Virus genome (UHGV): UHGV-1424210
Reading direction: 5' to 3' (one strand)
Source: a virus
DNA length: 10,134 nucleotides
Shown here: in pieces, positions 208 through 10,134 of the stretch
Numbering within the stretch: position 1 is the first letter of the stretch
Layout of the letters: every line of letters starts with the position of its first letter
Notes under the pieces: model-generated
What the model was told of the DNA's origin: nothing
Databases searched by the model: none
The model's input: the letters and a program-made list of their open reading frames with translations, nothing else
Made by a program: the position numbers and the translations under genes

Positions 208-417
208 TTACACTGCCTTACCTGAATTAATGCGATCCCGGCTTTTAACCCATTCCATAACCTCGGACAGCAGCCACCCTACAGAACGACCGCCCAGATT
301 AAGACGTGACGGAAAGCTCCCTTTTTTCTCCAGTTCGTAGCGTGTAGTGCGACACACTCCAGTTAACTTACGACATTCATCCTCACGGATTACGCGATCT
401 TCATTTATTTCACGCAT
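208..417 (-). CDS. alpA: AlpA-family (prophage CP4-57 regulatory protein / excisionase-like) helix-turn-helix regulator, about 69 aa
   Basis: Translation MREINEDRVIREDECRKLTGVCRTTRYELEKKGSFPSRLNLGGRSVGWLLSEVMEWV fits the AlpA/Xis-like HTH pattern. Start set at the ATG at 417-415. The ORF-track start at 504 is a GTG directly abutting AAGAGG, with no usable spacing, and would add 29 non-conserved residues. Confidence 0.75.
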   Translation of the reverse strand: MREINEDRVIREDECRKLTGVCRTTRYELEKKGSFPSRLNLGGRSVGWLLSEVMEWVKSRDRINSGKAV

Positions 418-758
418 ACAAAAACCTACATAAAAATTACGTATATAAACTTTTCTCTTAGCTGTAGATATATGAGATCGGATATTACTTAGATTCTTTT
501 TCACCTCTTAAATTAAAAACACAACCATGCTAAAGGCTTTGTTCGCTAAGGTTCGTAGAAGCTCGTTAGTGTTTAAAATCGTGTCACGAGTTTTTAAGCG
601 ACGCAACAAAAAATGTCGTCATTTGGCATGACACCTTAATTACCTCATTAAAAACAAATAGATAAACCATCAGGTGTTGGAACAATCAAGAAACAGAGAA
701 TAAGAACTCAGAAGAAGACATTTCAATTTTTTTCGATAGTTGACACATATAAAGAGAA

Positions 759-836: not shown

Positions 837-2075
837 TCAAGAATTTTGGGGGTAAATTCGCGGGGTCATAACAACGATTTTTTCATCATTGTTCTGGAGA
901 AGCTCGAGACGGTCTACCCATAGATTAAGAGCATCACGTTTTGCATCAAGGTAGCGGGAGTGGTTATAGACTCGTTGCATCCCTGGCATCTGGTGGGCTG
1001 TAAGCTGCTCGACAATATGCGGATCCACGCCTAAATCGTTCAGCATGGTTGTAAATGTGTGCCGGATATCGTGTAACGTCCAGGGGGCTTGATTAATTCG
1101 TCTGTGCGCTGTTCTTCCGTACTCTGCTACCGAAGATTGTCCTTTCAGTTCACCAAGCAATAAGCCTGTGTGTCTGTTCTGCTCCACCAGTTGCGTGACG
1201 AACGGCAAAATGCTTTCCGGTATTGGCCTGAATATGGCGACCTTCGTTTTGCTGTGCTCCTTCGGTACTGTCCAGAGCATTTCTTTAAAATCCCACTCCT
1301 GCACCTCAGAGCGCCTTAGCTCAGTGGTACGGCATCCAAAAACAATCAGGAGGCGAATTAGGGCGCTGTAGTATGGCGGGAATATTTTGTCATCCAGGGC
1401 GCGGAGTAATTCCCCAAGCTCCTTATTTGTTAGTACGCGCTCGCTCACTTCTGCTTTTTTTCCCACATCACCGACAACCATATCATCAAGAACGTTGCTG
1501 ATTGCGTATCGTCGTTTTCGGCAGTACTTAAGCGCCTGTTTGCATACCTGTAGCAAAAATCCGGCAGATACAGGGCTTCGCTTTGCCATCTGGTCAAAAC
1601 ATGCCAACCAGTGCCGTAGCTCGCATTTTTCCAACGGCAAAGCGCCAATCTGGCTGATTATGTGTTTATTGATCCGGCTTTTCAGTGATTCGTAGTCAGT
1701 GCGCTTTTCCTTTGCATACGATTCAAGCCAGTAAGTGAGCGCTTCCTTAACTGTCACGGGGGCTAACGCATCCTGTACAGCACGATTAAGCTCATAGCGC
1801 GGATTTTTCCCCTCAGCCAGCCAGGCGCGACACTGTGCTGCTTTTTCCCTGGCTGCTTTCAGGCTCAGATCGGGATAATTGCCCAGTCTCAGACGTTCCG
1901 GTGATACCTGCCTACCAGTTCCGGCCCTGTAAGTGAAATACCAGGTTAACAGGCCGCTGGTGGAATGTCTTACGCTAAGATTGCCACCGTCATTAAAAAA
2001 GGCGTTTTTTGTGGTTGGTGATCCGCTTAATTTTCGTAAAAGAGTGTCGCTAAGTCTATGAATTGCGCTGCTCAT
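837..2075 (-). CDS. int: Site-specific tyrosine recombinase (P4-type integrase), 412 aa
   Basis: Full-length ORF starting with ATG at 2075-2073. C-terminal catalytic-domain signatures: conserved Arg in LIVFGCRTTELRR, His-x-x-Arg box WTLHDIRHTFTT, and a C-terminal Tyr region QRVYNHSRYLD. Overall resemblance to P4/CP4-57-type integrases. Confidence 0.9.
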   Translation of the reverse strand: MSSAIHRLSDTLLRKLSGSPTTKNAFFNDGGNLSVRHSTSGLLTWYFTYRAGTGRQVSPERLRLGNYPDLSLKAAREKAAQCRAWLAEGKNPRYELNRAVQDALAPVTVKEALTYWLESYAKEKRTDYESLKSRINKHIISQIGALPLEKCELRHWLACFDQMAKRSPVSAGFLLQVCKQALKYCRKRRYAISNVLDDMVVGDVGKKAEVSERVLTNKELGELLRALDDKIFPPYYSALIRLLIVFGCRTTELRRSEVQEWDFKEMLWTVPKEHSKTKVAIFRPIPESILPFVTQLVEQNRHTGLLLGELKGQSSVAEYGRTAHRRINQAPWTLHDIRHTFTTMLNDLGVDPHIVEQLTAHQMPGMQRVYNHSRYLDAKRDALNLWVDRLELLQNNDEKIVVMTPRIYPQNS

Positions 2076-2098: not shown

Positions 2099-2355
2099 AT
2101 TAACTACACCATTGACTACACCGTGCATCGTACAAGGGCAAACCGTGACGAACAAGAGCGAACAAGGAAAACAAAATTTTCCTTTATAATCATAGCGATG
2201 AATGCACACAAAACACTACCACGAACACCCGCGAACACTAGATGATAAATAACTATCATTTATATCATTTAGTTAATTAGTCTTTATTTTTCATTATGTT
2301 GCAAATAACAAGCCCGTCAAAAACAGTGATATTAACTACACCATTAACTACACCG
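2099..2355. repeat. Pair of 25-bp direct repeats, ATTAACTACACCATT(G/A)ACTACACCG, at 2099-2123 and 2331-2355
   Basis: The two copies differ at one position and are 232 bp apart. Each is itself a tandem duplication of ATT(A/G)ACTACACC. They flank the putative int promoter. Confidence 0.7.
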
Positions 2356-2386
2356 CTTCACGAACAATATCGAACAACCGCGAACA
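2149..2386. repeat. Seven CGAACA hexamers in helically phased (10-bp) groups upstream of int
   Basis: CGAACA at 2149 and 2159; at 2222 and 2232; and at 2361, 2371 and 2381, with exact 10-bp spacing within each group. Candidate integrase arm-type or AlpA/RDF binding sites. Confidence 0.6.
2293..2320 (-). promoter_or_regulatory. Candidate sigma70 promoter directed toward int
   Basis: On the minus strand: -35 TTGACG (reverse complement of 2315-2320), 16-bp spacer, -10 CATAAT (reverse complement of 2293-2298). Predicted leader of about 210 nt to the int ATG at 2075. Lies between the repeat groups. Confidence 0.35.
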
Positions 2387-2642
2387 AAGATCAACACGCT
2401 TTAATCATTATCATTTTCCGGCTATCCGTCATGAAGCTGGTGGATGATCTGCGTGGTGATTTCCACCATTCAGAGCAGGGGCGGTCATCATGACCATGCC
2501 ATAACAAAAACCCCATATTCGTGGTTTTTCTGTGTCGGGGCTATTCTGCTGTTGCCGTGCTGGTGGATATTCTCCGGTATGCGGCTCCCCATATCGGCAT
2601 CAGGCCCACCAGCGTGAAGCGTTTTTCATTTTTCGCGGGTAT

Positions 2643-2702
2643 AAAAAATCGATGGGGCGGGCAGTCCTGAAGACGTCAGGGTACAGAGATTTGACCCGCC
2701 CC
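2643..2702 (-). terminator. Intrinsic terminator (minus strand): compound GC stem followed by U6
   Basis: GGGGCGGG (2654-2661) pairs with CCCGCCCC (2695-2702), enclosing an inner hairpin CCTGA-agacg-TCAGG (2666-2680). On the minus-strand RNA this is followed by AUCGAUUUUUUAU (plus-strand A-run 2643-2648). Confidence 0.5.
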
Positions 2703-2716
2703 TCCCTGTGCATGAG

Positions 2717-2752
2717 CACAATAAGTAACCGAAGGCGGAATTCCGCCCTCGG
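2717..2752 (-). terminator. Intrinsic terminator (minus strand): 10-bp stem around GGCGGAATTCCGCC plus U-rich tail
   Basis: Minus-strand RNA CCGAGGGCGG-AAUU-CCGCCUUCGG (one G-U pair) followed by UUACUUAUUGUG. First terminator reached after the packaging operon. Confidence 0.5.
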
Positions 2753-2784
2753 TACTTACATATGAGAAACGATATTTCTTCCAC

Positions 2785-2925
2785 CGATACCCTTTATTTG
2801 GGTATCGCGAGTAAGCCCCAAAATCTGGGTGTTACTCTTACTACCCAAACTACGGGTAGTTTCCGTAGTTTCATGGTCGAGTTGCAAATCTGCAACTCAC
2901 CCACCAGCCAACGCAATTTTGCGTT
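2785..2925. other. Cluster of four hairpins / inverted repeats in the untranslated region downstream of the packaging genes
   Basis: H1 CGATACCC-tttattt-GGGTATCG (2785-2807); H2 alternative stems ACTACCC/GGGTAGT (2840-2860) or AAACTACGG/CCGTAGTTT (2847-2871); H3 GAGTTGC-aaatct-GCAACTC (2879-2898); H4 AACGCA-attt-TGCGTT (2910-2925). Confidence 0.45.
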
Positions 2926-2943
2926 ATCGGGAATATCAGCAAG

Positions 2944-3324
2944 TTACCGCCGCAGTCGTTCCGGCTTCTTCCACTGGTAAGTACTTTTCGCGCTCTCCCT
3001 CCGTTGTTGAGAACGGCGACGGTATGCCAGCAACTCAAGGACTCTGGTTCGTATGTTGCGCATATCCACGCCGTTAAGCTCAATACCATCACGGCGCATC
3101 ACCTCAGCAACAACACGCGCGTAATTTTCGGCTATCACGCTGTCCGGCTGCGTGGCCTCCTGTTCGCCAGCCTGCTGGCTGATTCCGGTAATACTGCGGA
3201 TTATCCCGAGCGCTTCGGTCTCGGTCATGGTCATGGTCATGGCCTCCATAGTGATGGCGGGTCCTCCTTGTGGGGTGCCCTGCCACGGGGCGGGAGCATC
3301 GCGGAAAAAGGCTAGTTTTTGCAT
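2944..3324 (-). CDS. Hypothetical protein downstream of terS (126 aa from ATG 3324; more likely about 101 aa from ATG 3249)
   Basis: Same strand as the operon. A strong SD, AAGGAGGA, lies 13 nt upstream of the internal ATG at 3249; the ATG at 3324 has no SD. Contains an in-frame (ATGACC)3 repeat encoding MTMTMT. No recognisable family. Confidence 0.45.
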   Translation of the reverse strand: MQKLAFFRDAPAPWQGTPQGGPAITMEAMTMTMTETEALGIIRSITGISQQAGEQEATQPDSVIAENYARVVAEVMRRDGIELNGVDMRNIRTRVLELLAYRRRSQQRRESAKSTYQWKKPERLRR

Positions 3325-3485
3325 TTTTATTCGTCATCACCACCAATGCAATATATTGATATGACTTGATGTTTTATTTTTCGGTGTCGATTTCGATTGT
3401 TTTTTGTTCATCACTGACGCATAACGCCCACCAGCGCAACGCTGAAAGCCAGTCAGTAAACTGGCTTCGGTCATTGTGCACTACG

Positions 3486-4028
3486 TTACTTGTCTTTATC
3501 CGGCTGAAACTTATCAGGCACATTTCCGGTAGTTTCCATCAGATAATCGGACAGCATTCGCGGGATGTTTTCATCAAGTTTTGTGCATGCGTTACAGGCT
3601 CTGACAACTTCTTTTTTCAGGCCATCCAGCATGACGGGGGTCATCTGTGGGAAGCTCCTTTGCATAGTAAGCGGGAGGCTGTCCATGATTGATGAAATCT
3701 GACTCGCCAGTTTTGAAAGCGCGTACATGCAAAACTCTGTATCAATCACGTCACCGCGATCGCGCTCGTTTTTAAGTTCCTGCGCCTCCGCCTGTGCTGT
3801 CAGTAATCTGATCCTGACTCGTAAGAGTTCATCATCATCAATCTCGCCTTTGTCGTTTGTAAGCTGGCTAATTGCATTGTTAACCCTATTGTCTATCACG
3901 CTGGCAACATCATAAAACGCCTCACGGCCTTTACGTTCAACGGGAGTCACTCCCCACTTGTCGAATGCTGTAGCACTTACCCGGCAGCTTTGCGCCATGG
4001 TTTTTTTGTTCATCAGGTGCGATTTCAT
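3486..4028 (-). CDS. Terminase small subunit, lambda Nu1-like
   Basis: Full-length collinear similarity to lambda Nu1 as recalled: RLLTAQAEAQELKNERDRGDVIDTEFCMYALSKLASQISSIMDSLPLTMQRSFP… versus lambda RLTRAQADAQELKNARDSAEVVETAFCTFVLSRIAGEIASILDGLPLSVQRRFP…; C-terminus ENIPRMLSDYLMETTG versus ELIPGLLSEYIEQSG. The ORF-track start at 4031 is TTG; ATG candidates are 4028 and 4013 (MNKK…, matching lambda MEVNKK…). Confidence 0.85.
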   Translation of the reverse strand: MKSHLMNKKTMAQSCRVSATAFDKWGVTPVERKGREAFYDVASVIDNRVNNAISQLTNDKGEIDDDELLRVRIRLLTAQAEAQELKNERDRGDVIDTEFCMYALSKLASQISSIMDSLPLTMQRSFPQMTPVMLDGLKKEVVRACNACTKLDENIPRMLSDYLMETTGNVPDKFQPDKDK

Positions 4029-4129
4029 CAATATCCCAACTTGGTCAAGGTTTCAGGTTGGTGTGTTGGTGTTATCTTTCCCTTTTTATTCATGGAGATA
4101 GAGCAAACAACAAAACCACCACCACCACC

Positions 4130-4215
4130 CTGAAAAAGCTCATAAATAGCGAAAAACCGCAAGGTCGCCGCCCCGTAGCCTACCGGATCGCCGGAAAGGA
4201 CCCGCCAGCCAGAAC
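4130..4215 (-). other. Lambda-type cos site (cosQ/cosN-like); cosN cohesive-end sequence at 4162-4173
   Basis: Minus strand reads GGGCGGCGACCT at 4173-4162, identical to the lambda 12-nt cohesive end as recalled. Both flanks also resemble lambda: CGGGTCCTTTCCGGCGATCCGGTAGGCTACG upstream and TGCGGTTTTTCGCTATTTATGA downstream. About 135 bp upstream of the terS start, as in lambda. Confidence 0.8.
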
Positions 4216-4229
4216 GGGACCTAATTTCA

Positions 4230-4613
4230 TCAACCAATCAACTTATAGCGACCATCCCGTGCATTGCGACGTACACGCTCAATCTTGAGGCATAGCGCCG
4301 CATCTGGCTTTTTTGGGACAGGTACGCGGCAATATTCAGAAGCTCGAGGAATATTGTTTATCCAGTCGATCACTTCACTTAAATACCAGGCCTTACGCCC
4401 TTCCGTAACCTGTACGCGCTCGGGGAACTCTCCGCGAGCCTCAAGGTTTAGCAATGTGCGACGGCTAAGGGTAGTAAGTTCCATCACCTGATTCATATCA
4501 ACAAGGCGTTCACTTAAACGCATTTTGTCAGCAATAGCCTTTAATTCCTCTACTGCTGGATCCGGATACATCATTTCGGCAATTGGCTTAAGGTCATTGT
4601 AATGATTCTGCAT
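4230..4613 (-). CDS. AlpA-family HTH protein with an approximately 45-aa N-terminal extension (127 aa)
   Basis: C-terminal part VMELTTLSRRTLLNLEARGEFPERVQVTEGRKAWYLSEVIDWI matches the AlpA/excisionase-like HTH pattern. ATG at 4613 is preceded by SD AAGGGGGA at 5-nt spacing. Sits between the D-like gene and cos. Confidence 0.75.
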   Translation of the reverse strand: MQNHYNDLKPIAEMMYPDPAVEELKAIADKMRLSERLVDMNQVMELTTLSRRTLLNLEARGEFPERVQVTEGRKAWYLSEVIDWINNIPRASEYCRVPVPKKPDAALCLKIERVRRNARDGRYKLIG

Positions 4614-4624
4614 TGTATCCCCCT

Positions 4625-4966
4625 TTACACACGAGCCAGCGGCTGAACAGAAATACCTGAGCCAACAAACGCGGCAACCTTTGCCGACAGTTCTTTTACA
4701 GACTCAGGCCAGTTCAGAGCATCAACATTTAAAACACCTGTCTTATAAACCTGTGCCTGTGTTTTTTTCGCTGTGTCGATTTGTACAGCGGAAACATAAA
4801 CCGCTTTGCCTGCGCTCGTTCCATCCCATACCACTAGCGCACCAGTTGCATCTTCCTGCATCAGTGGCGTAAACGCAGGTATTACCCCTTTATTGGCTGA
4901 AAATATCCCCAGCGTAGTAACCAGTGCTTCAGTGCCAGACATGAGTTCAGTGTAATGAGTAGCCAT
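4625..4966 (-). CDS. Head decoration protein, lambda gpD-like (113 aa)
   Basis: Similar length to lambda D (110 aa), with shared motifs THY, TPLM, WDGT, KTG, WPE and a C-terminal AF-G-x-IS. SD AAGGGGGAG upstream of the ATG at 4966. Starts 10 bp after the capsid gene stop. Confidence 0.8.
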   Translation of the reverse strand: MATHYTELMSGTEALVTTLGIFSANKGVIPAFTPLMQEDATGALVVWDGTSAGKAVYVSAVQIDTAKKTQAQVYKTGVLNVDALNWPESVKELSAKVAAFVGSGISVQPLARV

Positions 4967-4975
4967 TGCTCCCCC

Positions 4976-6022
4976 TTAGCCAATGCGAACGGTAACAAAA
5001 CGATTGATGCGGGCCGGTATTGGCTGTGGTGCTGAATGTGTCTGCACATATTCAATAGCCGGATCACCAGGCACAATATAGTTTTTCGGTGCAAGTTCGG
5101 CTTTAGTCAGCCCCATCCGGATTAGCTCCGGATCCTGAATACCGCCATAAGCGACAATCCCCTGAAGAGCCGTATTGCCAAGCACCATCAAATCAGGATC
5201 AAGGAAATATTTTTCAGTTCCGTCCTCGTCGGTATAACGCCCGCTGTAAACAACAATCGCAACATCGCCCATATACCCTTTAAAACTCACCGAATCACCA
5301 AGGTCTTTAAGGGCCGTTTCCAGTTCGGAATTAGAACCACGACGAGTATCCAGAGCCTCTTTTATCGCCCTGAATGAACGGTATTTCTTCCATACATTAC
5401 CGCCCATAATGATAATATTAGTGACGCCCTCACTAAATTCTGCGTAGCTCTCAATATCATCATTTGGATCAAAAGCTTCTTTATCCTTACCTGACCACTC
5501 AGCACCGCCAGACTGAGTGATGATATTTTGTGGTTTAATATTCCAGTCCAGCTCATAACGTTCAATACCATCGCCCTCAATGATATTTTTCCCCGTTGTG
5601 ATTGCCTGAACGGCAAGCCATTCAATACGTGCACGAATAGCTTTAGCCTGATTTACAATCGCCTGTTTAACTTTAATATTACGCGCTCCAAAAGCATTGT
5701 ATTGCTCAGGTGATACACCAGCAGGGCGCACAGCTAACTTATTTGGATCAATGCTGCTTTTCGGTTTCATATAGCCAGGGCGAATTGTTTTTGATTCGTA
5801 TCCCTCATCTCGTGAAACTTTACTGCCCACCATAGGAGAGCAAAACGCCGCGATCGGGATATTTGGATCGTCGATCGTATCAAGAATAATGTCTCTCGAT
5901 TCAAACATTACCGAGCGAGTGAAAAACAAACTGGTAAACAACGCATTTAATTTTTTTTGCACATCTTCAGCATTAGCCACCTGCACAAGCTGTGTAGGCG
6001 AATATAAGTCAACCATACTCAT
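4976..6022 (-). CDS. Major capsid protein, lambda gpE-like (about 348 aa)
   Basis: Collinear similarity to lambda gpE as recalled, e.g. NIITQSGGAEWSGKDKEAFDPNDDIESYA and ALDTRRGSNSELETALKDLGDSVSFKGYMGDVAIVVYSGRY versus lambda NITQSGGTEWSKRDKSTYDPTDDIEAYA and KLDTRRGSNSELETAVKDLGKAVSYKGMYGDVAIVVYSGQY. Start set by homology at MSMVDLY (ATG 6022); the alternative ATG at 6016 has better SD spacing. The ORF-track start at 6103 is TTG. Confidence 0.9.
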   Translation of the reverse strand: MSMVDLYSPTQLVQVANAEDVQKKLNALFTSLFFTRSVMFESRDIILDTIDDPNIPIAAFCSPMVGSKVSRDEGYESKTIRPGYMKPKSSIDPNKLAVRPAGVSPEQYNAFGARNIKVKQAIVNQAKAIRARIEWLAVQAITTGKNIIEGDGIERYELDWNIKPQNIITQSGGAEWSGKDKEAFDPNDDIESYAEFSEGVTNIIIMGGNVWKKYRSFRAIKEALDTRRGSNSELETALKDLGDSVSFKGYMGDVAIVVYSGRYTDEDGTEKYFLDPDLMVLGNTALQGIVAYGGIQDPELIRMGLTKAELAPKNYIVPGDPAIEYVQTHSAPQPIPARINRFVTVRIG

Positions 6023-6187
6023 CCTCTTTACATTCATTACAAATAATTGTGAATATATTCTATTACCGATGTCTGCTATGCGAATACATGCAACCAAGTG
6101 CAATGTTGTATAAAATATGCTGTGACAACTTCAGTGCTGATAATTCGTGTTAATGTATTTACTTCCTTTGGTCGGGATTTATGTAGC

Positions 6188-6216
6188 ATGCCGGAAAATC
6201 TATTTTTTTCCGGCAT
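6188..6216. other. 11-bp-stem hairpin between the SSB-like and capsid genes (terminator-like)
   Basis: ATGCCGGAAAA (6188-6198) / TTTTCCGGCAT (6206-6216) with a 7-nt loop. A T-rich tract follows on the plus strand only, so its role in the minus-strand operon is uncertain. Confidence 0.35.
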
Positions 6217-6233
6217 CTTTTTGTTTGCAGAAT

Positions 6234-6656
6234 TTAAAACGGTATATTATCGCCGTACGGATCATCATTCCCCGACTGTTGTTTTGCCCTGTTCAGTGCG
6301 TCAGTGGCCTGCCCCTGCTGGCCTTTTTTGCCGCCCGGTCGCGCTGTTCGCGCACTGATCACGCTGTCTGCGATAACCTGCCAGCCCTGCCGCGTTTCGC
6401 CGTTCTGGCCTGTCCACTGGCTTACCTGCATGTTACCCGCCACGCTCACCAGTTCGCCTTTGTGGTGTTTTGCCAGTGCGTCGGCCTGTCTGCCAAACGC
6501 CAGGACGGATAACCACATCATCGCCGTTCCGTCATCTGCCTGGCTGCACGGAAGGGGGACCGCCATACTAGCCATCGCCATTTGTGTACCCTTGCTGGTG
6601 GTCTTTAACTGCGGGTCAGCCACCAGCCGTCCGTAAGCCGCTATCTGTGCTGTCAT
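6234..6656 (-). CDS. Single-stranded DNA-binding protein (SSB)-like, 140 aa
   Basis: OB-fold-like core WLSVLAFGRQADALAKHHKGELVSVAGNMQVSQWTGQNGETRQGWQVIADSV resembles E. coli SSB [51 protein letters not shown]. Gly/Gln-rich linker and acidic C-terminal tip DDPYGDNIPF (compare SSB DFDDDIPF). SD GGAGAG upstream; the start ATG overlaps the upstream stop (ATGA). Confidence 0.65.
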   Translation of the reverse strand: MTAQIAAYGRLVADPQLKTTSKGTQMAMASMAVPLPCSQADDGTAMMWLSVLAFGRQADALAKHHKGELVSVAGNMQVSQWTGQNGETRQGWQVIADSVISARTARPGGKKGQQGQATDALNRAKQQSGNDDPYGDNIPF

Positions 6657-6895
6657 GCTGTCTGCTCTCCGGTTTTAACGTTGATGGTTGTCACCTGTTC
6701 CGCTTCGGCAATCTCCCGTTCTGTCAGCGTGGCAAAGTTTGCAGCTGCCGTTGTCATGAATGCGCTAATCAGTTCGGGATGTGCTTTCGCATATCCTTCC
6801 CCGGCGTTGCGGTCGATGATTTTTATCGCCACTCTCAGCCAGTGCTCTGTAAGGTCAATAGCGCGGTAGTGTGGTTGTTTGCGGTTTTCCTTCAT
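6653..6895 (-). CDS. Hypothetical protein, 80 aa, translationally coupled to the SSB-like gene
   Basis: ATG-initiated ORF whose stop overlaps the SSB-like start (ATGA). First gene after the iteron region. No recognisable motif. Confidence 0.5.
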   Translation of the reverse strand: MKENRKQPHYRAIDLTEHWLRVAIKIIDRNAGEGYAKAHPELISAFMTTAAANFATLTEREIAEAEQVTTINVKTGEQTA

Positions 6896-6935
6896 AGTTC
6901 AGATCTCAATTTTTCGTATATATATACAAAACAGT

Positions 6936-7250
6936 GCGGGTTATGCGGGTTAGCGGGTTATCTTCGCTTGCTAAGTATTTTTTATTCCTTAATATCAATA
7001 CATTACAAAATTAACTGTTTACTGTTTAGCCGTGGCGTAACCCGCAAAATGCTCAAAATAACCCGCAAACGGGGTTTTTTCTGCGGGTTACGCGTGGCTG
7101 TTTGCTGTCACTTCCTGTTATTCATCTGCGGGTTATAATCGCACTTTTGCGGGTTATAACTGCCGTTTTGCGGGTTACGTGCGGGTTATTGATTTCCTTT
7201 TTATTCATGCAGTTAATGCACTTATACACAGAGTAACCCACATAACCCGC
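6936..7250. repeat. Iteron array (9-bp GCGGGTTAY) flanking an AT-rich stretch: candidate replication origin
   Basis: Direct copies at 6936-6944, 6945-6953, 6954-6962, 7083-7091, 7128-7136, 7149-7157, 7170-7178 and 7181-7189. Inverted copies (TAACCCGC) at 7036-7044, 7058-7066 and 7242-7250, plus a degenerate one near 7233-7240. AT-rich region 6962-7030. Immediately downstream of the Rep stop at 7274. Confidence 0.7.
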
Positions 7251-7273
7251 AACTTTTCACCTCACACAGGGGG

Positions 7274-9397
7274 TTAATCTTCTGCCTCAGGCTGGAACAT
7301 CAGCACGTAAAAAACATGCTGCTTCCCCCCAATTTTGCCGAGAGCCTTTTTCTTGTAACGGCGATCGTTACCCGCTTCCAGCATTCCGGCAGCACTCAAC
7401 GCGCGGGCAAAGTGGGACGGGTTAAATCCCTGTGCGATCTCCCCCTCAAACACATGAGGAAACGTGTAAAAACGGAACTCATCATCTTCATTTCTGATAC
7501 TCCCCTTTCTGTATCCGGCAAGGTCTTTAATCGGTAAATCACGTTCATCACTGTTTGGGTAAGGAAGGTATCGACTGAACCCGAACGACGACAAAAACGC
7601 CTCAGCCTGTTCAACCATCTGTTTAAATTCCCTGTTACCCGTGCCGAACTCCTTCACCCAGGCATTAAAGTTATGCTGTATTGCGTCCCGGCATTCCTGC
7701 GCGGCCCAGCCAGTTACATGACCGGAAAGCACAAGCGCGGCCTCCAGTATGGCGAAACGCTCACCCACGCGGTGGACTTGCTCGCCGTAGCTCTCCGGTA
7801 TCAGGTTGCGCCACCGTTCGCGGCATTCCCTTACCGTATCCTTTGCCTCCTGCTGGTGGCCTGCCAGCCATTTAACCCACTCACGACCCGCTGCCCCGTG
7901 ATTTTCTGTCCAGGCATCCTTTAACGCGTCTGCGTGCGCCTTTCCGGTGCTGTATTCGTGAAAGTGCGTGGCTTTTTCCATCGGAACGTTAAGCAGGCGG
8001 ACAAGCTGCCCCGCTTTGACTTTTATCCCCTCCGTTTTGAGGAATGTCTCAACGTCCATTTCTCCGGTGCTGATTGCCACCGTGCGCCAGTGTTTTATCT
8101 CCCGGTTGCCGCCGTCCTTCGCCCCCTGTAATTTCCCGGAACCGTTAAACAACGTATAGGCTGACGTGGACACCTCCCGCGCGTTTCCGGCCTGGCCTAT
8201 TTCATCCAGGGGTAACAGCCCGTCGTTGTGCGCCTCTGCCTCGTTAGCGATACCTAACGCTGTGCCGTACCAGGTCAGCCGTTGTGCGTCCGGCTCTCCC
8301 CATAAACTTGATGCGATGTTCTGCGTGGTGGTTTTCCCTGCCGATGACTGTTCGAAAAGATGTACCCCGAAGCCGTCAGCACCAACAAGGCCAATCAAAG
8401 GTGCTGCCAGTGACGTGGCAACACCCAGCATCATGGACGGATTGCCACCAGCCAGCCGCGCCACGCAGTCGCGCCAGCCCTCCGACGTACCCGCAACCGA
8501 ATAGCCATTAACAGTGGCACTTTTTCCGGTAAACAGGATCGGTTTTTCAGAATCACCAATGATTGAGCCGTCCGGCATGATATACGCGCCAAAATGCCAG
8601 CCCGTTGTTGTGCTTAGCTGCCATTCCTCATGGCTTCCGCTTAACTGCATCCAGTCAGCCAGGATAGCCCTGTATTTGCCGTTTGTTGTCACGTTCAGCC
8701 CGTGATCTTTAAGCAACCGCCAGCCGTCACGGTCGCCAATGCCACCACACGGGATCGCCATTGTGATGACTTCATGGTTTGCTAATTTTTTCCAGCGCAT
8801 CACGCGGTAATGCTCTTTACCGATCGTCCCCGTTCCCAGTAGTTCAAGCGGAGAACATAACCACGTCTCAGGCCGGATAATTTCGCCTGACTGCTTATCC
8901 ACTTTGGGCGTTACCCAGAAAACACCATCGACGCGACTTTCAACGCGGGGCTTTAATTCATCATCCTGATAGCATGGCTCTTTTTTCTTTACAGGCAGTT
9001 CAACTACCTTTTTCTTTTCCGCCTGCTCTGCCCGTTCACGTTCCAGATATTCGCGCCAGTTCTCCCGTTTCTGGCTGTGCATTCCTTCAGGGTAATAATC
9101 AGCATCCCTGACACCTGCCGCTGCCAGTTTCTGCCCGATGGTATTAACAAGCCCCGGACGCAATAACCCCGCCTGGTAGAGACGCACGCGATAGCGTCCG
9201 TCCGGTACGATTTGCAGGTTGTCCAGTTCGGCAAGTTGTTGCTCTCCAAGCCAGACAGGTGGCACGTTATCGCCAGCCAGTCGCCCGTCCTGTTCCTGCC
9301 ACTGCTTCGCATGTGCCCACGCATCACTACCCGCAAAAATGATGACTTCCGTCATTTTGTCACGCGGCTGGTGTTTTAAATTTGGCGCTTTTTTCAT
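7274..9397 (-). CDS. Replication initiator (primase/helicase-like ATPase; resembles DUF927-type proteins of CP4-57/PICI-like islands), about 707 aa
   Basis: Long ORF with P-loop-like motif FEQSSAGKTT and Walker-B-like LLPLDEIG. Adjacent iteron origin. Start set at ATG 9397 (SD GGAGAGAG, ATGA overlap with the upstream ORF stop); the ORF-track start at 9412 is GTG. Family assignment is from memory, not from a search. Confidence 0.8.
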   Translation of the reverse strand: MKKAPNLKHQPRDKMTEVIIFAGSDAWAHAKQWQEQDGRLAGDNVPPVWLGEQQLAELDNLQIVPDGRYRVRLYQAGLLRPGLVNTIGQKLAAAGVRDADYYPEGMHSQKRENWREYLERERAEQAEKKKVVELPVKKKEPCYQDDELKPRVESRVDGVFWVTPKVDKQSGEIIRPETWLCSPLELLGTGTIGKEHYRVMRWKKLANHEVITMAIPCGGIGDRDGWRLLKDHGLNVTTNGKYRAILADWMQLSGSHEEWQLSTTTGWHFGAYIMPDGSIIGDSEKPILFTGKSATVNGYSVAGTSEGWRDCVARLAGGNPSMMLGVATSLAAPLIGLVGADGFGVHLFEQSSAGKTTTQNIASSLWGEPDAQRLTWYGTALGIANEAEAHNDGLLPLDEIGQAGNAREVSTSAYTLFNGSGKLQGAKDGGNREIKHWRTVAISTGEMDVETFLKTEGIKVKAGQLVRLLNVPMEKATHFHEYSTGKAHADALKDAWTENHGAAGREWVKWLAGHQQEAKDTVRECRERWRNLIPESYGEQVHRVGERFAILEAALVLSGHVTGWAAQECRDAIQHNFNAWVKEFGTGNREFKQMVEQAEAFLSSFGFSRYLPYPNSDERDLPIKDLAGYRKGSIRNEDDEFRFYTFPHVFEGEIAQGFNPSHFARALSAAGMLEAGNDRRYKKKALGKIGGKQHVFYVLMFQPEAED

Positions 9398-9693
9398 TTC
9401 TGCTCTCTCCACGCGGCAATCATGTTTTTCAGTTCCTGTAGTTTTTTATCCACATCCACACGTGACACATGGTTATTTCTGGAAGTCGGGATTTCCCGCC
9501 GGAATCTGCAAATAAAGATCTCCACGTTCAGCGAACTAAGAAATGAATAGCCATCACGGATAAAATACACACGGTCAAACATCAGTTCTTTTACCGTTAC
9601 TCTGTTACCGTTCTTATCCAGATAAATAGCGCCGGGGATAATTTGGGGGTGTGCATAACCGCTGGCAGTCAAGCCAGATAAATACGTTCTCAT
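9394..9693 (-). CDS. Hypothetical protein, 99 aa, translationally coupled to rep
   Basis: ATG at 9693 with an upstream GGGGAT; stop overlaps the rep ATG. No recognisable motif. Confidence 0.55.
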   Translation of the reverse strand: MRTYLSGLTASGYAHPQIIPGAIYLDKNGNRVTVKELMFDRVYFIRDGYSFLSSLNVEIFICRFRREIPTSRNNHVSRVDVDKKLQELKNMIAAWREQK

Positions 9694-9699
9694 GATTAT

Positions 9700-10020
9700 T
9701 TATCCCCGATTTGAATCAGTATTCGCTTTCTTTATAGCATTTAATGCATCTGTGGCATTTTCAATGGTGCACCGTAACGAAATATCAAAATGTCCAAGCA
9801 TTGCCAGTAACAAACCGATATTACCCATATCAATGCGCATGGCCTTTTCGTCATAGTCCTCATTTTCTGACGCATGCCACATCAGGCTACCAATTGACGC
9901 AACAGCCATTGATATATTGTCAGTAGCCCCATCCGCAGCGGAATAAACCTTTTTAGCAATATCATGCTCACAGTTAAAATGCGGATTAATCAGGTACTGG
10001 TAATTTGACATATCAGGCAT
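9700..10020 (-). CDS. Hypothetical protein, 106 aa
   Basis: ATG-initiated ORF. Its start overlaps the stop of the upstream partial ORF by 8 nt. Six bp separate its stop from the next start. Confidence 0.55.
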   Translation of the reverse strand: MPDMSNYQYLINPHFNCEHDIAKKVYSAADGATDNISMAVASIGSLMWHASENEDYDEKAMRIDMGNIGLLLAMLGHFDISLRCTIENATDALNAIKKANTDSNRG

Positions 10021-10134
10021 GGCACACCCCCTGACGAATACGGGCAGCGAATACCATCACGCAGCCAGCCGGGGATTGCAGGCGTGCTTCCTGTTCGCTG
10101 GTGGCCTCAATGGTAATCACGCGCGGTTGTGCCG
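10013..10134 (-). CDS. Partial CDS (C-terminal 39 codons) entering from the right edge
   Basis: Open minus-strand frame from the window edge to TGA at 10015-10013 (…VITIEATSEQEARLQSPAGCVMVFAARIRQGVCHA), overlapping the next gene start; indicates an operon of at least four genes. Confidence 0.4.
   Translation of the reverse strand, partial: AQPRVITIEATSEQEARLQSPAGCVMVFAARIRQGVCHA

Follow-up and report, generated by a model that had tools for sequence, protein, structure and literature searches.

Background

Capsid and decoration genes have been known from PICIs since 2018, and the arrangement of the two genes described below is already published. Of 29 reference Gram-negative PICIs, 21 have capsid genes, on which transfer does not depend (Mageeney 2023, PMC10111431), and the capsid gene and small terminase have been counted among the components of PICIs (PMC10085698). 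In EcCICFT073, the model Gram-negative PICI (Fillol-Salom 2018, 2019), all packaged DNA was phage-sized (PMC6092414). Deletion of its capsid gene c1499 or its decoration gene c1500 left transfer, interference and the size of the packaged DNA unaffected (PMC6092414), a result that comes from only three helpers, from an island with Rpp in place of TerS and from a homologue 54% identical to the capsid protein studied here. Redirection of capsid size was sought in EcCICFT073 and not observed. A c1499::cat replacement transferred well (PMC6092414). For two siblings of the present island, EcCIIHE3034 and EcCI18098, low-level transfer has been reported (PMC6092414, Table 1).

Other satellites carry capsid genes as well. 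PICIs of the 11capE type are embedded in helper prophages (Mageeney et al. 2023), and cf-PICIs such as EcCIEDL933 encode their own major capsid protein and small terminase (Alqurainy et al. 2023). In SaPIbov5, capsid size is redirected by Ccm, a homologue of capsid proteins (PMC6092414; bioRxiv 10.1101/2022.09.08.507074), and small capsids are also made by PmCI172, which has a gene for a capsid homologue (PMC6092414). Here we analysed a stretch of 10,134 nucleotides (UHGV virus genome UHGV-1424210, hereafter the window), which harbours genes for lambda gpE-like capsid (E) and gpD-like decoration (D) proteins.

The window is a PICI joined at its att site

The features that define the island outside its late zone are the following.

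208–504, minus strand: AlpA-type regulator adjoining the integrase gene (Pfam Phage_AlpA, 4e-16; a shorter 69-aa HTH protein according to PGAP)
837–2075, minus strand: tyrosine integrase, 412 aa (Pfam Phage_integrase and Arm-DNA-bind_3)
2242–2263, no strand: att core, an attP-type junction beginning ATGATAAATAACTATCAT, which joins the integrase end to the terS end of the island
6188–6216, no strand: candidate terminator or operator, a perfect palindrome with an 11-bp stem and T runs between the SSB and capsid genes (consensus match only)
6234–6656, minus strand: single-strand DNA-binding protein, SSB (Pfam SSB, 1.7e-15)
6934–7253, no strand: predicted replication origin, with TGCGGGTTAT repeated about 12 times, some repeats facing each way, directly 3′ of the primase-helicase gene
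7274–9412, minus strand: DUF927 primase-helicase, the putative replication initiator (Pfam DUF927, 3.7e-47)
9394–9693, minus strand: DUF4222 protein upstream of the replicase (Pfam DUF4222, 9e-17)
9700–10020, minus strand: 106-aa protein with no assigned function, upstream of the replicase (phrog_15327, 2e-71)

An integrated copy was found in NZ_CP109921 as an island of about 10.7 kb bounded by clpS and yljB/cspD. When the window was compared to this copy by blastn, it aligned in two pieces with an overlap of 22 bp, which is the att core. A core of 18–22 bp is common to attL, attR and the window junction, and it includes the published EcCIIHE3034 att sequence ATGATAGTTAT (cspD-clpS). As the joined ends indicate, the window is the island closed at att, either as an excised circle or as a tandem junction. 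The roughly 600 bp of the integrated island that lie outside the window encode only Icd-like and YlcI genes. The IMG/VR contig L012 shares the att junction and is 97.5–99.3% identical to the window over three blocks, with positions 6851–8976 (the replicase region) unmatched.

All genes of the island lie on the minus strand, with int and the AlpA gene at one end. The iterons at 6934–7253 are probably the replication origin, and their position agrees with that of the PICI ori (PMC6092414). The palindrome at 6188–6216 possibly separates the replication zone from the late zone. Neither the window nor the complete integrated copy contains a portal, protease, scaffold or TerL gene among its ORFs, as judged by Pfam and PHROG, and there are no tail or lysis genes in the island. 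A scan for tRNA genes in the window gave no hits, and no P4-type CI, C4 or isrK RNA was found in the window at the Rfam gathering thresholds, the Bro/Icd zone being partly outside the window.

The original prediction, made from the window, had described a satellite that would have to obtain the missing portal, protease, scaffold and TerL from a helper. The complete element bears this out: an integrase, AlpA, a primase-helicase with a predicted iteron origin, cos and TerS are present, and our search between clpS and cspD found no portal or protease gene. The island combines the features by which a PICI is recognised, namely a small size with att boundaries, an int/alpA end, its own replicase and predicted origin, and cos and terS without virion-building genes. 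For excision, replication and transfer induced by a helper, the joined att junction and the low-level transfer of the two siblings are indirect evidence.

The late zone encodes complete gpE- and gpD-like proteins

Three genes form the capsid part of the late zone.

4976–6022, minus strand: gpE-like major capsid gene, probable start at 6016 giving 346 aa (Pfam Phage_cap_E, PDB, PHROG)
4625–4966, minus strand: gpD-like head decoration protein, 113 aa (Pfam HDPD, BLASTP to lambda D)
4230–4613, minus strand: second AlpA-type wHTH protein, 127 aa (Pfam Phage_AlpA, 1.4e-8; phrog_2790, 2e-48; PDB 8c3t AlpA, 1.6e-10)

The longest capsid ORF spans 4976–6103 and adjoins the decoration ORF on the same strand. 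Translation most likely begins at M30 (position 6016), which is also the start chosen by PGAP in NZ_CP109921; it is conserved in four other genera, and a GAGG lies 6 nt upstream. The capsid ORF was correctly located by the original prediction, although the ATG proposed there, at 6022, is two codons before M30.

The capsid protein matched Pfam Phage_cap_E (PF03864) at 6.3e-41 over model positions 4–327 of 329, and its score of 140.9 bits against a curated cut-off of 22.9 bits places it in the lambda gpE family. It was also assigned to the major head proteins by PHROG (4e-91). BLASTP aligned it to lambda gpE residues 1–341 with 42% identity (4e-85), which confirms a full-length gpE homologue. 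Block identities of E are uneven, at 14–33% in a divergent N-arm/E-loop region versus 60–80% in a more conserved core. The top PDB match was the crystal structure 3BQW (1e-121), which we take to be EcCICFT073 c1499 as the lengths are equal; lambda gpE cryo-EM chains matched at 6e-76.

For the decoration protein, Pfam HDPD (PF02924) was matched at 2.3e-15 over model positions 2–111 of 116, with 57.2 bits against a curated cut-off of 29.1 bits, as for members of the lambda gpD family. PHROG (head decoration, 1e-26) and BLASTP to lambda gpD (40% identity over 78 aa, 1e-17) agreed, so that the predicted homology of both products to lambda E and D is established. Both genes are intact and complete, and D is cognate to E. 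Their order, E before D, is the reverse of that in lambda, as had been noted.

The 127-aa AlpA-like protein showed no similarity to the 137-aa gene product encoded in the same slot of EcCICFT073. We also considered it as an Rpp homologue and rejected this, since its sole PDB match was AlpA (8c3t) and RppC (6HLK) was not matched.

Two convergent cos sites flank terS

Downstream of these genes, the packaging region contains four features.

4135–4205, minus strand: cos1, a lambda-type cosQ-cosN with cosN GGGCGGCGACCT at 4162–4173, in lambda orientation and 130 nt upstream of terS
3486–4031, minus strand: Nu1-like small terminase (TerS), 181 aa (Pfam Phage_Nu1, 1e-22; PHROG terminase small subunit, 6e-52)
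3255–3409, plus strand: cos2, a cosQ-like GGGTCCT followed by cosN GGGCGGGAGCAT at 3288–3299, opposite to the genes and pointing into the 3′ end of terS
2944–3324, minus strand: conserved terminal ORF with no assigned function (phrog_1561, 2e-50; 94 aa from near 3228 according to PGAP)

The cosN of cos1 is an exact match (12/12) to the lambda cohesive end. Visual comparison of the surrounding sequence with lambda cosQ-cosN gives about 90% identity along some 80 bp, followed by divergence at the would-be cosB. The cosN of cos2 is of another kind: window positions 3288–3326 are 97% identical to positions 1–39 of phage Tritos, and the start of the Tritos record, GGGCGGGAGCGT, differs from the cos2 cosN by one base. 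In addition, the cos2 region is about 81% identical to a stretch just upstream of terS in PhiR47_1. The longer, 126-aa reading of the terminal ORF overlaps cos2. The original layout, with E and D upstream of a single cos and terS, therefore holds for cos1 but has to be extended by a second, inverted cos downstream of terS, so that terS is flanked by two convergent cos sites with unlike cosN.

Along its full length TerS shares 37% identity with lambda Nu1, and its best phage match was N15 gp1 (47.5%). No significant similarity was found between TerS and the TerS proteins of Tritos and PhiR47_1, the phages that share cos2. The helper using cos2 can therefore not be deduced from TerS.

The island is a mosaic of known PICIs

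Judged by its gene content and sequence relationships, the island is a Gram-negative PICI of E. coli and a mosaic sibling of EcCIIHE3034, EcCI18098, EcCICFT073 and the helper-embedded 11capE type. It shares the cspD-clpS site and the att core with EcCIIHE3034 and EcCI18098 (Fillol-Salom et al. 2018, ISME J, Table S1). These islands are also alike in length (10.5–10.8 kb) and in the order capsid, decoration, small gene, cos1, terS, inverted cos2 and terminal ORF. Compared to EcCIIHE3034, the integrase is 99.8%, AlpA 98%, TerS 87% and SSB 89% identical, whereas the capsid and decoration proteins reach only 55% and 54%, since the allele in EcCIIHE3034 is of the CFT073 type. This contrast between int and E shows that the islands are clearly mosaic. 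Furthermore, the third gene is unrelated (it encodes the AlpA-like 127-aa protein in the window), the replicase is of the DUF927 type rather than the D5-type primase of EcCIIHE3034, and cos2 has a different cosN (GGGCGGGAGCAT).

With EcCICFT073 the island shares the four-zone layout, synteny and the order E before D. The E (c1499) and D (c1500) proteins are both 54% identical to those of the window, SSB is 69%, an 80-aa ORF 91% and the terminal ORF 71% identical, and the N-terminal 230 aa of the primase are 50% identical. Convergent cos1 and cos2 sites around the packaging gene are found in all three islands (the present one, EcCICFT073 and EcCIIHE3034). The differences are that EcCICFT073 adjoins phoQ rather than cspD-clpS, that RppA fills the slot of the full TerS, and that each of its two cosN is of the lambda type. 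Of the two islands, only EcCICFT073 has been studied experimentally.

The capsid-decoration-HTH allele of the window also occurs, at 95–100% amino acid identity, in prophage-inserted satellites resembling the 11capE-type PICIs of Mageeney et al. (2023; 11capE from strain NRG857c), a comparison made with IMG/VR loci. These satellites sit in head genes of lambda-like prophages, mostly in E at about codon 80. In contrast, the integrase of the window is only 37–42% identical to theirs and its att site is chromosomal.

The island resembles cf-PICIs (EcCIEDL933; Alqurainy et al. 2023) in that it encodes a major capsid protein and a small terminase itself. The gene set of cf-PICIs also includes a portal, a protease, head-tail connectors, HNH and TerL, and these elements make small capsids themselves. 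The present island lacks all of these additional genes, and with no portal, protease, head-tail connectors or TerL in the window or the integrated copy we ruled out a cf-PICI. The likeness to SaPIbov5 Ccm is one of analogy, a satellite capsid homologue for which we found no sequence relationship to the E of the island. The same applies to P4, which has the decoration protein Psu and a late activator beside cos. The parallel to sid-delta-psu-cos drawn in the original prediction is accordingly positional and does not extend to homology with Sid, Psu or Delta (Pfam, PHROG). We also rejected a P4-like satellite, as no sid, psu or delta was found by Pfam and PHROG among all window proteins and only int, alpA and the primase-helicase are common to both.

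The capsid allele is conserved and distant from phage E

The E-D-HTH trio is present in five genera. Between genera, dN/dS was 0.014–0.07 for E and 0.07–0.11 for D, with dN of 0.05–0.14 across the five genera, saturated dS and a small cross-genus sample of four loci from a scan of genome contigs. By these ratios E and D are both under strong purifying selection. Among 50,697 phage records, no E above about 42% identity was found (best, 41.5%), and the best match of D was about 42%. On these identities, E and D form a satellite lineage that is at most about 45% identical to any sequenced phage E, the lambda-type E of prophages included.

The allele is carried by 397 of 5,426 complete E. coli genomes, and 15 complete E. 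coli genomes contain the island over at least 80% of its length. Of 80 IMG/VR loci with the allele, 57 hold a second E gene or E fragment belonging to a prophage, which is 90–100% identical to lambda E in 55 and 64% identical in two. Satellite E and co-resident prophage E are 40–47% identical over long segments. Most of the 57 embedded loci split the helper E at about codon 80–82, and a Cedecea relative is embedded in a prophage in a like manner. The 127-aa AlpA-like gene is kept beside the allele in 79 of the 80 loci. What is new here is the purifying selection on E and D, their distance from phage E, the embedding in prophages, and the two convergent and unlike cosN flanking terS.

Possible roles of the capsid and decoration proteins

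The reading that we consider probable is that E and D are the late-zone capsid part of a Gram-negative PICI with helper-sized packaging, in which they serve as shell subunits and not as size determinants. A lambdoid helper would induce the island, which would then replicate, and the island TerS would recruit the helper TerL to the island cos. Concatemers would be cut cos-to-cos into helper-sized heads as multimers of about four units, comparable to the trimers of EcCICFT073; by arithmetic, 4 × 10.7 gives 43 kb or 88% of the lambda length. Most likely, E and D would be genuine head components, a shell and a decoration protein that are assembled with the portal, scaffold and protease of the helper, and they would probably provide a spare shell or one that is useful under certain conditions. 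Strong long-term selection on E and on the D that goes with it would be difficult to explain if the two proteins were dispensable, which suggests that they likely have an important role under conditions outside those assayed for EcCICFT073.

A somewhat unlikely alternative is that the module arose in satellites inside the helper E (or B/C), where it replaced or buffered the interrupted head gene, and that the cspD-clpS island obtained it by recombination. Such a back-up role was proposed by Mageeney 2023 (PMC10111431). The 57 of 80 loci in which the exact allele lies in lambda-like prophages, mostly within a split helper E, are consistent with it, as are the embedded Cedecea relative and the clear mosaicism of the islands. 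On the other hand, helper E is restored on excision, so that a back-up is not obviously needed, and alleles of the EcCICFT073 type are also found on chromosomal islands. Moreover, an E that is 42% identical may not work with the scaffold and D of the helper.

The original prediction had proposed capsids sized for the small genome, for which the sister island EcCICFT073, judged by analogy, provides no support. Here, E and D would act with the portal, scaffold and protease of the helper to form smaller heads that fit 10.7 kb and shut out the helper genome, on the model of P4 Sid/Psu or SaPIbov5 Ccm. We regard this as unlikely. It would agree with the completeness and strong conservation of E and its cognate D, and with the precedents of SaPIbov5 Ccm and PmCI172. 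A lattice of its own would be conceivable for satellite E, given that over long segments it shares only 40–47% identity with the lambda-type E found in its natural helpers. Geometry scaled from lambda would also allow it: a T=3 head would be about 79% full with one genome, and a T=4 head about 102% full with two. Against this, packaged EcCICFT073 DNA was all phage-sized, and its c1499 and c1500 deletions were neutral and the c1499::cat replacement transferred well. In addition, four island lengths (43 kb) suit a lambda-sized head, which makes small heads unnecessary, and neither Pfam nor PHROG revealed a size-determining scaffold like Sid or CpmB.

A related and equally doubtful idea is that, with some natural helper, satellite E and D form a shell on the portal, scaffold, protease and tails of that helper, and that this shell might be small. 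The helper could be a lambda-type prophage of the kind that hosts the relatives, or a phage of the Tritos/PhiR47 cos type. If true, the island would stand midway between classical PICIs, with their theft of whole capsids, and cf-PICIs, which take nothing but tails, and the effect would have been missed in EcCICFT073 owing to the helpers or the allele used.

It is very improbable that E and D are poison subunits in helper procapsids, or decoys for capsid-sensing systems, instead of a container for the satellite. The divergent N-arm/E-loop beside a conserved core would suit a poison subunit, and Gram-negative PICIs interfere strongly with their helpers; in EcCICFT073, however, interference maps to RppA, and the c1499 and c1500 deletions did not restore lambda plaques. 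A poison subunit would also have no obvious use for a cognate decoration protein. Finally, the locus is almost certainly not an ordinary defective prophage remnant that lost its other head genes: homologues of E, D and Nu1 are phage late genes, but core genes flank the island, its att ends enclose no other head genes and terS is its only terminase gene, for which reason we reject this reading, and it also conflicts with the conserved four-zone PICI layout, the presence of at least 80% of the island in 15 complete E. coli genomes, the purifying selection on the trio in five genera and the lack of an E above 42% identity in the 50,697 phage records.

E and D are among the most widespread late genes of PICIs and are far from any phage E. 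The present data point to natural helpers, namely prophages with a lambda E and cos phages of the Tritos type. They also draw attention to the island as a variant that carries TerS and has cos sites of two kinds, and could guide a better-designed experiment.

Homologues of the lambda capsid and decoration proteins in a satellite island

Every substantial open reading frame (ORF) of the window lies on the minus strand. The genes and sites are as follows, in gene order.

Features of the island in the window
Minus strand, first in gene order: gene for a 106-aa protein, then one for a DUF4222 protein (Pfam/PHROG)
Minus strand, after the DUF4222 gene: DUF927 primase-helicase (Pfam/PHROG)
6934-7253, directly 3′ of the DUF927 gene: iterons, the 10-mer TGCGGGTTAT occurring about 12 times, in both orientations
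Minus strand, between iterons and capsid gene: 80-aa protein, then SSB (Pfam/PHROG)
4976-6103, minus strand: E-like major capsid gene as longest ORF; Pfam Phage_cap_E, 6.3e-41, nearly the whole model
4625-4966, minus strand: D-like decoration gene, 113 aa; Pfam HDPD, 2.3e-15
Minus strand, after the decoration gene: AlpA-like protein, 127 aa (Pfam/PHROG)
4162-4173, minus (gene) strand: cos1, cosN GGGCGGCGACCT, 12/12 to the lambda cohesive end, preceded by a cosQ-like GGGTCCT
Minus strand, after the AlpA-like gene: Nu1-like small terminase (TerS), 181 aa, 37% identical to lambda Nu1 over its full length
3288-3299, plus strand: cos2, cosN GGGCGGGAGCAT, downstream of terS
Minus strand, after terS: conserved terminal ORF, then tyrosine integrase, then AlpA regulator (Pfam/PHROG)
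2242-2263: 22-bp att core, attP-type junction, where the two pieces matching NZ_CP109921 overlap

The capsid protein aligned to residues 1-341 of lambda gpE with 42% identity, and the decoration protein shared 40% identity with gpD across 78 residues. PHROGs agreed with Pfam on both assignments. The gpE and gpD homologues of the original prediction were thus confirmed by both databases and by direct alignment, as was their order, E before D, which is the opposite of that in lambda. The predicted capsid start at 6022 is an ATG two codons upstream of the likely start, M30 at 6016, which gives a protein of 346 aa. M30 is also the PGAP start in E. coli NZ_CP109921, and the same start was found in four other genera. 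The top structure match of the capsid protein was PDB 3BQW (1e-121), a 'putative capsid protein of prophage' of 351 aa. It is equal in length to c1499, the capsid protein of the sister island EcCICFT073, and is presumably the structure of that protein.

The complete island lacks all other head genes

The window is 99.9% identical to NZ_CP109921 as two permuted pieces, 2242-10134 matching the left part and 1-2263 the right part of an island located between clpS and yljB/cspD. The two pieces share the att core, which in the window joins the integrase end to the terS end, and the island is therefore seen here in a form whose ends are connected. Judged by this arrangement, the source of the window is an excised circle, a concatemer or a tandem array/junction and not a single integrated copy. 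No window-collinear copy was found among the best 15 complete E. coli genomes. The exact att junction was present in a sole IMG/VR metagenome contig (L012), in which positions 1-123 are the arm on the terS side fused to the integrase end, and the far end (10586-10780) runs about 190 bp past the point where the window match stops on the att side. This layout would fit a tandem island pair, or an assembly mixing circular and integrated forms.

The approximately 600 bp missing from the window hold, in the NZ_CP109921 copy, only Icd-like and YlcI genes. In the complete island of about 10.7 kb, no portal, protease, scaffold, large terminase (TerL), tail or lysis genes were found, so that the predicted lack of portal, protease, scaffold and TerL holds also for the part outside the window. 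A prophage remnant was rejected, as no other contiguous head genes are present in the complete island between clpS and yljB/cspD.

The iteron array is a probable replication origin. A perfect palindrome (ATGCCGGAAAA ... TTTTCCGGCAT, 6188-6216) with T runs on both sides lies between the SSB and capsid genes, and may act as a terminator in both directions, or as an operator setting the late zone apart as a transcription unit. A weak promoter-like site was seen at 6084-6057. At 3215-3245, the conserved terminal ORF opens with a short run of GGTCAT hexamers, which is translated as (MT)n. We favour the 94-aa PGAP start of this ORF over the 126-aa reading, because the latter would cross cos2.

The island is a Gram-negative PICI

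Gram-negative phage-inducible chromosomal islands (PICIs) were described by Fillol-Salom et al. 2018 (PMC6092414). The model island EcCICFT073 has the same order of DUF4222, primase, small ORF, SSB, capsid, decoration, small gene, packaging gene and terminal ORF. Compared with the window, its capsid and decoration proteins are each 54% identical, its SSB 69%, its 80-aa ORF 91% and its terminal ORF 71%. The packaging gene of EcCICFT073 encodes RppA (PDB RppC match, 5e-31), whereas a full TerS occupies this slot in the window. Table S1 of PMC6092414 places EcCIIHE3034 and EcCI18098 at cspD-clpS with the att sequence ATGATAGTTAT, which lies inside the att core of the window. EcCIIHE3034 has near-identical integrase (99.8%) and AlpA (98%), with TerS at 87% and SSB at 89%, but carries CFT073-type capsid and decoration alleles (55% and 54% to those of the window), and therefore the window island is a mosaic sibling of published PICIs.

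Mageeney et al. 2023 (PMC10111431) report that, of 29 reference Gram-negative PICIs, 21 carry a capsid gene, and the SatelliteFinder paper counts a capsid gene and a small terminase as PICI components (PMC10085698). All features of a Gram-negative PICI that can be tested on sequence were found in the element. A capsid-forming PICI was rejected, since portal, protease and TerL are absent, and a P4-like satellite was rejected as the island has no sid, psu or delta. The predicted parallel to P4 sid-delta-psu-cos is one of position alone.

The slot after the capsid, decoration and HTH genes is variable. Besides TerS and RppA, we observed a TIR-domain gene, likely defence cargo, in a helper-embedded Cedecea island (L008, 12106-13254) and a lambda tail-assembly-I-like protein in a Kluyvera relative (L007, 12062-12661).

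Two convergent cos sites flank terS

A cos-terS unit downstream of the capsid genes had been predicted. This was correct for cos1, which, as in lambda, precedes terS by 130 nt, but the site is not single: a second, inverted cos is located beyond terS, and the two are convergent. By eye, cos1 is about 90% identical to lambda across roughly 80 bp, with divergence beginning at the expected place of cosB. For cos2, window 3288-3326 matches the opening 39 bases of the phage Tritos record at 97% identity, the first 12 of which are one base off the cos2 cosN, and the wider region is about 81% identical to a stretch of PhiR47_1 just upstream of terS. The TerS proteins of Tritos and PhiR47_1 showed no significant similarity to that of the island, whose closest phage TerS is N15 gp1 (47.5%).

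The cohesive ends thus differ between the two sites, lambda-type at cos1 and Tritos-type at cos2. A convergent pair likewise surrounds rppA in EcCICFT073 and terS in EcCIIHE3034, but there each site carries a lambda-type cosN; both EcCICFT073 sites are functional (PMC6092414). The mixed pair was found in 4 of 80 related IMG/VR loci and may be an adaptation to two helper types. In EcCIIHE3034, a sequence between SSB and the capsid region (7027-7113) is 79% identical to window 3258-3345, in another place and orientation than cos2, and may represent either a cos-like site that has moved or a third such site.

The capsid genes are conserved and distinct from those of phages

Relatives at 79-86% protein identity were found in Superficieibacter, Kluyvera, Cedecea and Kosakonia. 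In pairwise Nei-Gojobori comparisons, the capsid gene had a dN of 0.05-0.14 with saturated dS, and a dN/dS of 0.014-0.07 for pairs with estimable dS; the decoration gene had a dN/dS of 0.07-0.11. These ratios indicate that both genes are under strong purifying selection and not decaying, and the evidence points to functional capsid genes. The capsid-decoration DNA of the window allele was present in 397 of 5,426 complete E. coli genomes.

Lambda E (41.5%) was the top capsid match among 50,697 phage records, and that of the decoration protein reached about 42%. The window and CFT073 capsid alleles are 54% identical and have blocks in common that are absent from lambda E (lambda E and c1499 itself share 44% identity): at lambda positions 121-150 the two alleles are 80% identical to each other, with 30-37% to lambda. 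Because of the low identity to phages and these satellite-specific blocks, the satellite genes form an old lineage apart from those of phages. At lambda-E positions 211-240, the window allele is 80% and the CFT073 allele 50% identical to lambda E, and in block 91-120 the values are 14% and 50%. Such patchiness suggests past recombination with helper capsid genes.

Natural helpers and the proposed role of E and D

The helper survey covered 80 IMG/VR loci with the window capsid allele (95-100% identical). The decoration gene was present in all 80, the AlpA-like gene in 79 and TerS in about half. A second, prophage-type E gene or fragment was found in 57, for instance in locus L049 (2780-3025 and 13744-14529), being 90-100% identical to lambda E in 55 (nearly all 96-100%) and 64% in the other two (L065 and L091). 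Most helper E genes are split by the satellite at about codon 80-82; others are unbroken and lie downstream of a satellite that has integrated into the portal/protease region. Satellites in or beside prophage head genes are the helper-embedded PICIs of Mageeney 2023 (PMC10111431), and the Cedecea relative is likewise embedded. Satellite and helper E are 40-47% identical over long segments and 31% over a short N-terminal fragment.

In EcCICFT073, AlpA controls induction, the island's own ori drives replication, and packaging is cos-dependent, by the helper terminase, as phage-sized DNA (PMC6092414). In the window island, TerS would bind an island-specific cosB beside the lambda-type cosN and recruit a gpA-type TerL of the helper. 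Four island units (by calculation 42.9 kb, 88% of lambda length) would fill a helper-sized head, and the second cosN type may broaden the helper range. In our judgement, E and D are most likely true shell and decoration proteins, which would use the portal, scaffold and protease of the helper for their assembly.

As to what these subunits are for, they could conceivably serve as a back-up in connection with the helper-embedded lifestyle, although we consider this unlikely. That E and D build capsids sized for the small genome, as originally predicted, would agree with geometry scaled from lambda, in which one island copy takes up about 79% of a T=3 head and two about 102% of a T=4 head. However, the only relevant experiments, on EcCICFT073, point the other way: deletion of c1499 or of the decoration gene c1500 affected neither transfer nor interference (PMC6092414), and this reading is improbable. 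Interference in that island acts via the packaging protein, and a function of E and D as interference or decoy is very doubtful. The three roles are not mutually exclusive.

A satellite with lambda E- and D-like genes and no other part of the head module has been published before. To this, our analysis makes small additions: the selection and lineage analysis of E and D, the comparison with helper E, the exchange of TerS for Rpp in one conserved cos-flanked slot, and the mixed cosN types.
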